Source of the DNA: a virus
Taxonomy: Duplodnaviria > Caudoviricetes
Direction: 5' to 3' (one strand)
IMG/VR virus record: IMGVR_UViG_3300032330_002145
Coordinates: 1-64,000 of that record
Length of the DNA: 64,000 nucleotides
This document shows, piece after piece, positions 60,868 to 63,013 of this stretch (its first letter is position 1; each line of letters starts with the position of its first letter). Made by a program: the position numbers and the translations under genes. Below the pieces are notes generated by a model. The model was not told the DNA's origin, did no database searches, and saw only the letters and a program-made list of their open reading frames with translations.

Positions 60868-62121
60868 TTATTTTATAAGGGTTTTATACCATTCTGCTCT
60901 TTCTTTACTAACATTTTTTAAATCGTAAATGTCTTTAACTGTTTCATACAATCTCTCACCCATGTCGGTAATCATATTTGGGTTTTGAACTAACTTCTTA
61001 ATATATTTTGCCCAATCGCTGTGATTTCTATTTTCATCAACCAATAATGCATTACCGTCAACAAAATTACCCTTATCTAATGAATGTTTCAAATCAATAG
61101 TGTACGGACCAACAGATGAAGCGATTAACGCCTTTTTATAGAAACCTGCTTCAATGACTTTAAGTTGTGACTTAACTCTATTGAAAATATGATTTTTAAT
61201 TGGTGCTAATGAAATATCCATCTTAGAATAATTCATTGCGTATGATGTAACAGGTTTAGTCCAAACACGAGAATAAGGTAATGATAATGATGATTCATAA
61301 TTATATTCCTTATATTCCATCAAATATTTTTTATAGTTTTCATCAACAGTTCTATAGTTATCTGTGAAAATTGATTCGTAACTAGACCAAACTGTTTCTT
61401 CAGGTTTGATAGGTCTTTGTTTCTGTTCACCTGTCTGTTTGTTAATTTCGGTCATGGTACCACGAGTATCAAAACCACATAGAACATATTGAACTTTATC
61501 ATTTAAATCACTGTTCTTATTAACAAATCCTTCAAGTAACATTAAATCATGTAAGTGAGATGAACCTCCCAACCAACCAATACGAATTCTATCTGATTCT
61601 AAAGTAGGTTGTTTAAATTGTGGTTCATTAGGGTCGATGGCATTTGGGAAAACAACGACATTTGAATTTATCTTTTTAATCTCATCAGCAAAAACTTTAG
61701 TTGTTGTGGTAACATAACTTGCTTCTTTTAAGTTTGCAACAATCTTTTCATGTATCTTATTTTGAACAATCAGTTGATGAATCGGATGTTCTTTTGTAGG
61801 TAACCAATAATCATCAATATCGACAATTACTACGATACCAATAGACTTTAATAACTTAATGATATTAGGTGTATTGTCGTAGTTATTACCAATGTTTCTA
61901 TGTACATGGACAATCTGATATTGTTTCCAATAGTTGATGTCATTTATTTTTGGTTCGTAATCAATATCCACATGAAAGTCATCAGGATATAAATTTTGTA
62001 ACATTACATGGGGGTCAACGGAACGGAATTTTCCTTAACCAACCCCTGTACGGTCAGATGGGAGTACGAGTACTCTAATCTTTTCACGACCATTCAGGGG
62101 CGAATCTGTTTTTTGAATCAT
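60868..62121 (-). CDS. GT-B glycosyltransferase whose frame is interrupted by one in-frame TAA at codon 29 (recoded or pseudogene)
   Basis: ATG at 62121 gives MIQKTDSPLNGREKIRVLVLPSDRTGVG*GKFRSVDPHV, in frame with called ORF 60868-62004 (IGWLGGSSH, SLAPI, KSQLKVIEAG). Confidence 0.75.
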
Positions 62122-63013
62122 ATTTATTTAGTATTTCTAAAATTTTTTTATTATCGTGTTTTAGGTCACTTTCCCAAATCACTTCTAAATTATAACCAAA
62201 ATTACGAATTAAATCAATCTTATCCTTATCGTAATCCCAAATTTGTTTTGCGGTTTTACCCTTTTTCTGATTGAAATAATTTTCATCATATTTTTTCGGA
62301 TTACAATGCCAATAATCACCAAAATATTCTATAATTAAATTTAAGGATGATATGTAAATGTCACATATTTTAGTATCAACTCTATATGACTGGATAGACT
62401 GAATATTATGTTCTTTTAAAAACTGTATTATTTCTTTTTCTTTTTTTGAGGTAATTCCGGATTTAATTTTACCCAGCCTTCTTGTTTTTTTCATATGTTC
62501 AGACATTAATTTTCTAGTTTCCTCCAATTCCCCACTATTCCATTTCTTTTTTAAATTATCTGAAACTTTTTTTCTCCAAATAGGATTTGACATTGCATTA
62601 TCATTCCCGGTTCCTTTACCTTTTCTTGTTTTAGATAATTTTATTAAAGTTTCTTTTGTATGTTTTTTTCCATAAAAAGGATTACCTTCACCTGTTTGAA
62701 GTTTTAATGAACATGGTTTACATAATGAACTTCCTTTTAATTTGTTTAAATGATTTCTACAACAAATTGTTTTGTCTTTTGATTTTGTTTGGATTGTTTG
62801 ATTACAATTTGGACAAACCCTTTCTACTGAATATTGTTTTCCATCAAATTGAAATTTTAGTTTTGAACACCTGTCTCTTTTCCTAATTAAATTATGTTTA
62901 TTTAATACTTTTAGAATTGTAGGTTTTGACAGACCAACTATTTTTGAAATTTTTAAACTGCTTTTTCCTTTCTTATATTCGGAAATTATTTTGTTCTCGG
63001 TACTTTTATCCAT
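62084..63013 (-). mobile_element. Free-standing homing endonuclease (HTH + NUMOD3 + DUF559/Vsr-like nuclease)
   Basis: GEGNPFYGKKHTKET (NUMOD3), SKKEKEI, CDIYI...IIEYFGDYWH, YD..K...GYNLEVIWESD. Confidence 0.85.

Follow-up and report, generated by a model that had tools for sequence, protein, structure and literature searches.

How does a phage express an enzyme whose gene is interrupted, after 28 codons, by an in-frame stop codon? The question is raised by a glycosyltransferase gene on the minus strand of a 64,000-nt stretch of tailed-phage DNA (the window; positions 1 to 64,000 of IMG/VR record IMGVR_UViG_3300032330_002145). Its first part, open reading frame (ORF) 1 (62038..62121), starts at ATG 62121-62119 and encodes strand beta-1 and the Gly loop of the enzyme in that ATG plus 27 codons (MIQKTDSPLNGREKIRVLVLPSDRTGVG), the last of which is GGT (Gly; 62038..62040). 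Six nucleotides follow (62032..62037), the stop TAA at 62037-62035 and a second Gly codon, GGA, at 62034-62032; the frame then resumes with AAA TTC CGT and stays open for 387 codons past GGA, from the AAA at 62031 to the TAA at 60870-60868 (ORF2, 60868..62031). In the window the 6-nt gap keeps ORF1 and ORF2 in the same frame, and gene callers start the gene at an internal ATG at 62004, giving a 378-aa product. The initial annotation had described a single TAA between GGT and GGA, downstream of an in-frame ATG at 62121 that encodes the first strand, and had read it as a possible stop-hop. The minus strand reads as described and our analysis supports the hop; what that annotation did not make was the link to a homing endonuclease gene directly upstream, which would explain why the insert exists. 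On the evidence of sequence comparison, we hold it to be likely that the insert is a short coding gap of a mobile endonuclease cassette, skipped by a hop of peptidyl-tRNA-Gly.

A Gly-stop-Gly insert in a conserved glycosyltransferase motif

A protein search with the glycosyltransferase returned thousands of relatives. In homologs of 405-406 aa the sequence is MSEKIKVLVLPSD[KR]TGVGKFRS and the two extra codons are absent; the consensus PSD[KR]TGVGKFRS is present in >100 homologs with 78-98% identity. TGVGKFRS had been anticipated as the homolog consensus, and so it proves in these close relatives: they do not normally carry two more residues here, and the insert is absent from the endonuclease-free homologs. 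Several 378-aa database entries represent the same shortened gene call as in the window, and three 410-aa entries read GVGWGKFRS, with TGA in the underlying DNA; we rejected TGG as the source of this 'W' (P0070, P0072), the TGA codons having been called under code 4. Annotation pipelines hide such sites because gene callers either shorten the gene or switch to code 4.

The enzyme is predicted to have a GT-B fold with two Rossmann-like domains and to be GT4-like, in line with the GT-B assignment of the initial annotation. This prediction comes from an AlphaFold model of P0002, a 98% identical, endonuclease-free homolog (predicted local distance difference test score, 96.6), and its Foldseek matches to the solved GT4 enzymes GlgM, PglA, BshA, MshA and PimA (E about 1e-13 to 1e-10); the Pfam match to Glyco_trans_1_4 falls under the family cut-off. 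Strand beta-1 of the model spans residues 5-10 and helix alpha-1 residues 16-32, which puts the insert point, between G18 and K19, in the helix's first turn. Among 88 family members R21 is invariant and G16 nearly so, and the G-x-x-x-x-R spacing is kept across 150 distant representatives, none of which (0/150) has two extra residues at the insert point. If decoded, the insert would thus add residues between the nearly invariant Gly and the invariant Arg.

We scanned for the insert with successively fewer assumptions about its sequence. The pattern G-V-G-stop-G-K-F-R-S occurs in 8 of 80 viral contigs; with the first inserted codon left free, that codon is a stop in all 31 of the 31 viral contigs; and with both inserted codons free, all 68 of the 68 glycosyltransferase hits in metagenome contigs have a stop followed by Gly, the remaining 52 matches being unrelated sequences. 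Such agreement goes well beyond chance. In total, the Gly-stop-Gly insert is found at 109 loci representing 67 distinct alleles, as counted over the region from -33 to +75 around the site. The arrangement GGN-stop-GGN is therefore conserved in other genomes, with TAA or TGA as the stop in 67/67 distinct alleles. The commonest combination of take-off, stop and landing codons is GGC TGA GGT (35 distinct alleles), followed by GGT TAA GGT (13), the window's own form GGT TAA GGA (8), GGT TGA GGT and GGT TAA GGC (5 each), and GGT TGA GGA (1). The take-off codon is GGT or GGC in every one of the 67, whereas endonuclease-free alleles also use GGA and GGG at this position; the landing codon is GGT or GGC in 58 and GGA in nine.

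The stop itself is TGA in 41 alleles and TAA in 26, and no allele (0/67) has a sense codon or TAG, although TAG does terminate some of the endonuclease genes. We built a cassette tree from 450 nt of sequence upstream of the site. On it the stop underwent at least five changes, always by A/G exchange at the second base; its first and third bases show no change, against 9-18 changes at neighbouring 4-fold sites. Had the codon been neutral, it would have turned to sense many times over, which argues that the stop is selected. Synonymous sites around the gap are also unusually fixed: besides the GGY take-off codon, the first Gly of the motif is GGG in 55 alleles and GGA in 12 (GGT, GGC or GGA in endonuclease-free alleles), and a nearby Pro codon is CCC in 58 of the 67. 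An alternative genetic code was considered and rejected; long ORFs of the contig end in TAA (50/67) or TGA (17/67) and never in TAG, the first two are normal stops, and TAG does not occur in frame within long ORFs. Further X-stop-X sites in the genome are AT-rich intergenic coincidences alone.

By their substitution ratios, both gene halves are under purifying selection, with ratios of nonsynonymous to synonymous substitution rates (dN/dS) of 0.05-0.2. ORF2 has a normal length of 377-402 codons in 23/23 complete distinct insert alleles, and in a clade in which all members carry the insert its pairwise dN/dS is 0.07-0.145 at dS 0.8-1.9, far from the value near 1 that would mark a decaying gene. 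The 17 codons before the stop have a dN/dS of 0.16 at dS about 1, including TCN/AGY serine switches. Since these codons travel with the cassette, their conservation is not owed to time spent in endonuclease-free genomes.

We also observed GGT TAA GGC in a more distant glycosyltransferase (L289-L291), in the context GVG-stop-G-YYRS. Its downstream ORF has at least 568 codons, and in L289 is still open at the end of the 777 codons read.

Longer gaps and the proposed hop

In the hop that we propose, the ribosome would stall with its P site on GGU, occupied by peptidyl-tRNA-Gly, and its A site on the stop codon; the tRNA would unpair, re-pair with the next GGN, 6 nt downstream, and translation would resume at AAA. 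The product, ...DRTGVG-KFRS..., would be the wild-type protein.

A scan that tolerated additional nucleotides between stop and landing codon yielded 13 contigs from different samples in which the gap is longer. Gaps of 11 nt read TAA CTAAA GGT (L319, L320, L326), TAA ATCAA GGT (L322) or TAA CCAAA GGT (L324); gaps of 12 nt read TAA CCAACA GGT (L315, L317, L318) or TAA CAAAAC GGT (L316); and a 13-nt gap, TGA ATTTAAA GGA, follows GGC in L321, L323, L325 and L327. At all 13 loci a 28-codon ORF1 ends in Gly and a stop, and the final Gly codon of the gap abuts AAA TTY, so that the Gly pairs are GGT to GGT for the 11- and 12-nt gaps and GGC to GGA for the 13-nt gap. ORF2 is intact at 386-389 codons (the contigs of L323 and L325 end before its stop), and dN/dS is 0.05-0.09 between alleles sharing the same long gap. 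One cassette lineage, with ORF1 MSQNSLQRPNGQEKISVLVLPSDRTGVG, has a gap of either 11 or 12 nt, and the interior of the 12-nt gap would encode QN in one allele and PT in another; because both the length and the would-be residues vary, the gap interior appears to be free of coding constraint and untranslated. At 11 and 13 nt the two ORFs lie in different frames, and readthrough cannot join them. As we read them, these sister alleles are the decisive evidence for a hop over readthrough.

A single mechanism, with departure from GGY at a stop and landing on the first GGN downstream, would serve gaps of 6, 11, 12 and 13 nt and would give GVG-KFRS in each case; the window's gap is the shortest of these. 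As expected of bypassing, the two ORF parts are split by nucleotides that are absent in homologs and apparently undecoded, TAA or TGA lies directly 3' of the take-off codon in every allele at all gap lengths, and the frame need not be kept, as the 11- and 13-nt relatives demonstrate.

One further contig, L037:1275-1360 (IMGVR_UViG_3300014720_001422), has a 44-nt out-of-frame insert at the same G-V-G / K-F-R site, consisting of GGT GCT TAA, a 7-9 bp CCCCCAC/GTGGGGG hairpin, an A-rich tail, and GGT AAA. Upstream of it lies the remnant of an endonuclease, and the ORF that follows is intact, with 388 codons. In this single contig, which has a sense codon before the stop, the insert looks like a gap of the size found in phage T4 gene 60.

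Several observations weigh against a hop. The window's GGA landing codon is near-cognate for a tRNA reading GGU, a property common to 9/67 distinct alleles. At one locus, L283 (3446-3466), Ser AGT precedes TAA and GGC follows it; this is the sole non-Gly take-off, and re-pairing would require a G-U pair at the first position. L142 (JGI25911J50253_10016879) is the sole insert allele with a shortened downstream ORF, cut to 278 codons; it may be a copy in decay or the result of a sequencing error. Synthetic stop-hops in Escherichia coli are about 1% efficient. Among the stem and hairpins that we examined there is no stimulatory element with covariation support: a hairpin upstream, from -33 to the take-off codon, gives no RNAalifold consensus in the 67-allele alignment, and the scores of two upstream hairpin registers do not exceed those of shuffled sequences. 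A Shine-Dalgarno (SD)-like stimulator is doubtful too, because the phage genes lack SD sequences. Finally, the window's gap is in frame, so readthrough would be possible for that allele taken alone.

The stem considered here is the one proposed in the initial annotation, a possible stem-loop across the gap (62011..62046) with the stop first in the loop. Its arms are indeed present, GGGGUUGGU at 62046-62038 and GUUGACCCC at 62019-62011, and pairing is possible in relatives, with 92% of cells pairing across the 67 alleles. Covariation support is nevertheless almost nil: one pair has changes on both sides, nearly all others show no variation or vary on one side only, and the consensus structure has an energy of -1.9 kcal/mol. 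The GGG/CCC bases of the stem are replaced in the 11- and 12-nt lineage, and the stem is not conserved in the longer-gap lineages. The SD-like candidates that we rejected were GGGG/GGAG two nt upstream and TAAGGA/TGAGGT within the insert; the 11-/12-nt lineage has GGC instead of GGG, and the phage genes show no SD enrichment.

The contig (G000; 72.9 kb, 30.5% G+C) belongs to a tailed phage whose capsid protein is distantly of T4 type. With neither TAG-terminated long ORFs nor SD enrichment, its wider translation signals are Bacteroidia-like; its genes have A/T-rich leaders. Bacteroidia ribosomes ignore SD sequences even in prfB frameshifting (PMC10798248). The nearest cultured relatives of the phage infect Microcystis, Flavobacterium and Rhodothermus, and DNA similarity to cultured phages is confined to the NUMOD3 motif. 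ARAGORN finds no tRNA in the 72.9-kb contig, which is part of the genome, and a suppressor tRNA was rejected as an explanation. The window does contain a full-length transfer-messenger RNA (tmRNA) gene at 1786-2183 on the minus strand (Rfam RF00023, 125.5 bits against a gathering threshold of 47, E 2e-50); the tag peptide predicted by ARAGORN, GNVINKLSAVGLVRTEETVEVA, is without the usual hydrophobic LAA-type degron end.

Of the other explanations, programmed stop-codon readthrough survives best, but we consider it improbable. It would require a near-cognate tRNA decoding TAA or TGA, and an enzyme that functions with two added residues, GVG-X-G-KFRS. Phages are known to show leaky UGA readthrough, as for the A1 protein of Q-beta, and the stop is invariably followed by a Gly codon, for which a need at the protein level could be the reason. 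TAA, however, is the least leaky stop and is the one used in 26 alleles, and no tRNA gene was found in the 72.9-kb contig. Sense mutants would yield more product, yet there are none among the 67 alleles despite saturation of neighbouring synonymous sites. Above all, purifying selection persists where gaps of 11 and 13 nt put the ORFs in different frames, and readthrough of the 12-nt gaps would add X-Q-N-G or X-P-T-G into the first turn of the conserved helix.

A predicted homing endonuclease cassette

Directly upstream of the glycosyltransferase on the same strand lies a gene for a 309-aa protein (62084..63013), the 3' end of which overlaps the new glycosyltransferase start; its ORF, 63013-62084, covers the first 38 nt of the glycosyltransferase reading frame. 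The protein has an N-terminal helix-turn-helix, a four-Cys zinc ribbon (CxxC...CxxC), NUMOD3 and a C-terminal Vsr-like nuclease domain, with Pfam matches to NUMOD3, HTH_7 and MTES_1575; NUMOD3 is present in 21/21 homologs and HTH_7 in 10/21. In a sequence search against the PDB, the sole match was that of the NUMOD3 region to the DNA-binding domain of I-TevI (1i3j, E 2e-4), and the nuclease fold was seen through a structural model. In Foldseek this model matches 1vsr and the catalytic domain of I-Bth0305I (3r3p) with a template modelling score of 0.76 by target and probability 1.0, the E-values for the whole model being 0.01-0.06. Residues E229, D233 and H236 are invariant in 21 homologs. By its modelled fold, we classify the gene product as a Vsr-like (EDxHD / I-Bth0305I type) predicted homing endonuclease, free-standing.

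The endonuclease and the insert occur together. A homolog of the endonuclease lies directly upstream at 38 of the 39 insert loci with enough flanking sequence, as against one of 65 insert-free loci; the homologs at insert loci are 47-79% identical and end at the same place. On the glycosyltransferase tree, the insert state changed at least 13 times, at least eight of which are forced by well-supported branches, and the insert thus appears to have entered the tree at least 8-13 times. The endonuclease is patchily distributed at one genomic site with co-converted flanks. L114 is almost identical to the endonuclease-free allele L027 over the 300 nt that follow the insert (0-2 mismatches) but differs from it at 44 of the 90 nt that precede the insert; L113 has four mismatches to L027 in the first stretch and likewise differs at 44/90 positions in the second. 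Since the identity breaks there, we take the insert to mark the recombination junction of a recent invasion. Three parts make up the mobile unit: the gene for the endonuclease, a new 5' end that replaces that of the glycosyltransferase, and the insert.

In the scheme that we favour, the cassette would replace the 5' end of the glycosyltransferase with a new ATG, located inside the 3' end of the endonuclease gene, and 28 codons, and would also bring in the 6-nt TAA GGA after the Gly codon of the G-V-G motif. The insert would break the endonuclease's own target site and so protect the carrier genome. This immunity of the carrier against its own endonuclease is inferred from the position of the junction at the insert and, by analogy, from the precedent of the MobA endonuclease and gene 60 of phage T4. 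Among 62 distinct alleles with 1.1 kb of flank, the endonuclease is full length in 48, is reduced to its last 36-86 codons in 13, and is gone in one; the 14 alleles with a decayed or lost endonuclease still keep the gap and the new start. The retained 3' fragment is the part that bears the new ATG, which lies 26-29 codons before the stop in 63/63 distinct alleles.

A sister endonuclease lineage, 44-54% identical and about 253 aa long, is found at L266-L297 (e.g. L278:2501-3290). It lies approximately 30 nt upstream of the same glycosyltransferase, the gene's own start is kept, and there is no insert. Homing elements of several kinds recur in the glycosyltransferase gene, making it a hotspot: two homologs of 800 aa (P0124, P0125) contain a mid-gene intein with a LAGLIDADG endonuclease (Pfam Intein_splicing and LAGLIDADG_3), and other homologs of 560-830 aa have internal inserts too.

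The gene might instead be broken or split, the enzyme being dispensable, begun at the internal Met at 62004, or made as two polypeptides; we judge this a shade less probable than readthrough. Gene callers do annotate 378 aa from ATG 62004, many invasions look recent, and endonuclease insertions can yield functional genes in pieces (MobE/nrdA, cited in 10.1101/2022.08.31.505936). The internal Met, however, is missing in many alleles (HIKLQ, HIHLQ, HVKLQ), which have K, H or F instead, and we rejected a restart there. Such a start would cost strand beta-1, which the model places upstream as the initial annotation had supposed, together with half of helix alpha-1 including the invariant R21. Equally hard to accommodate are the dN/dS of 0.16 in the 17 codons upstream of the stop, the ATG kept 26-29 codons upstream together with its retention in the 3' fragments of decayed endonucleases, and the intact downstream ORFs with dN/dS of about 0.1 in the all-insert clade. 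A broken or split gene would also leave the conservation of the stop unexplained.

Removal of the gap at the level of nucleic acid, whether by RNA editing or micro-splicing, by polymerase slippage between GGN repeats, or through DNA heterogeneity within the phage population, is in our view very improbable. Variable lengths with fixed boundaries would fit excision, and in many alleles the 6 nt look like a tandem duplicate with imperfections (GGTTAA GGTAAA). Against this, about 120 assembled contigs hold the gap in DNA, and the weak consensus structure speaks against a ribozyme. To our knowledge, no bacterial or phage system excises 6-13 nt. A stop immediately behind the first Gly codon, retained as TAA or TGA through at least five switches, suits a ribosome whose A site is empty, whereas splicing would not need it. 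The chance of a sequencing or assembly error or a private nonsense mutation is negligible, given that many independent metagenomes carry the insert (109 loci), with synonymous differences around it, and the recurrence of the insert in about 100 independent contigs rules out misassembly.

We think it likely, with slightly less confidence than for the hop itself, that these loci form a large natural family of very short bypass sites (6-13 nt, perhaps up to 44 nt), lacking the elaborate signals of gene 60 and serving as a self-immunity device of a homing endonuclease that leaves the host protein unchanged.

Relation to known bypassing systems

In T4, the 50-nt gap of gene 60 and the MobA endonuclease constitute one mobile element with repeated recent insertions, and the gap protects against MobA; within the gene 60 family, a stop or hungry codon after the Gly take-off is conserved, and the gap is retained although decay of the endonuclease is frequent (Manning and Atkins, bioRxiv 10.1101/2022.08.31.505936). 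The glycosyltransferase cassette is an analogue of this element, with no sequence homology to it, and is not a member of that family. In both, an endonuclease gene and a short non-coding insert move as one cassette into the region of an essential motif, the gap opens with a stop right after a Gly take-off codon and closes with a Gly landing codon, and gap length is not tied to multiples of three (here in the relatives). In both, too, new N-terminal coding sequence comes from the element and the gap outlasts decay of the endonuclease. The MobA/gene 60 element is reportedly also the subject of Bonocora et al. 2011.

The differences are as clear. The gap measures 6 nt, or 11-13 nt among sister alleles, rather than 50 nt, the take-off codon is GGY rather than GGA, and the endonuclease is of the Vsr-like/NUMOD3 type whereas MobA is of the HNH type. 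The target is a GT4-like glycosyltransferase rather than topoisomerase II (large-subunit gene), the gene here is not split in two polypeptides, and the nascent chain would have 26-29 residues at take-off. The take-off stem-loop, 5' stem-loop and internal SD of gene 60 have no counterparts with comparative support here. The initial annotation had likened the site to gene 60, and the Gly-stop...Gly layout is indeed common to both; the likeness does not extend to homology, to the take-off codon or to a supported stem. Bypassing of gene 60 is experimentally proven, whereas bypassing of the glycosyltransferase gap is proposed from sequence comparison.

Synthetic stop-hops in E. coli, in which 9 nt specify one amino acid (Weiss et al. 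1987, reviewed in PMC5009743), are similar in that a stop lies between matched or near-matched codons and 9 nt would stand for one amino acid. In both, a slow-to-decode A-site codon would trigger re-pairing of the P-site tRNA, as we propose here. Those sites are engineered and of low efficiency, whereas the window's family is natural, conserved and under selection; no natural in-frame stop hopping was known as of a 2016 review by Atkins and colleagues (PMC5009743). The 'byp' inserts of Magnusiomyces capitatus mitochondria (bioRxiv 10.1101/2022.08.31.505936; PMC5009743) are likewise short mobile inserts in coding genes that are skipped by bypassing (here proposed), with codons that are not always perfectly matched. 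They differ in being 27-55 nt long, GC-cluster-like, and found in yeast mitochondria, with an unused sense codon in the A site and no endonuclease.

The endonuclease also has parallels. Vsr-like endonucleases replace MobE or MobA in some T4-like phages (bioRxiv 10.1101/2022.08.31.505936). The modelled C-terminal nuclease fold is that of I-Bth0305I (PDB 3r3p) and Vsr, the NUMOD3 DNA-binding module is as in I-TevI, and like other free-standing Vsr-like endonucleases it sits between genes beside a highly conserved target motif and is patchily distributed. Unlike I-Bth0305I-type endonucleases, it has a domain order of its own and a zinc ribbon. In a literature search, we found no paper describing the glycosyltransferase cassette.

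Knowledge of programmed bypassing in phages has so far come from a single system, that of T4 gene 60 with its homologs. The family described here offers dozens of natural minimal-hop variants, with several gap lengths, three take-off/landing combinations and two stops, making the sequence requirements of short-range bypassing directly testable. It would also provide a second, independent homing endonuclease that carries a translationally skipped insert, which suggests a general strategy in which an element shields its own target site while leaving a conserved protein motif unchanged. If our reading is true, in-frame stops beside mobile endonucleases would be systematically mis-annotated as truncated genes, and stop-hopping would be a decoding mode that is real and widespread among uncultured phages of fresh water.

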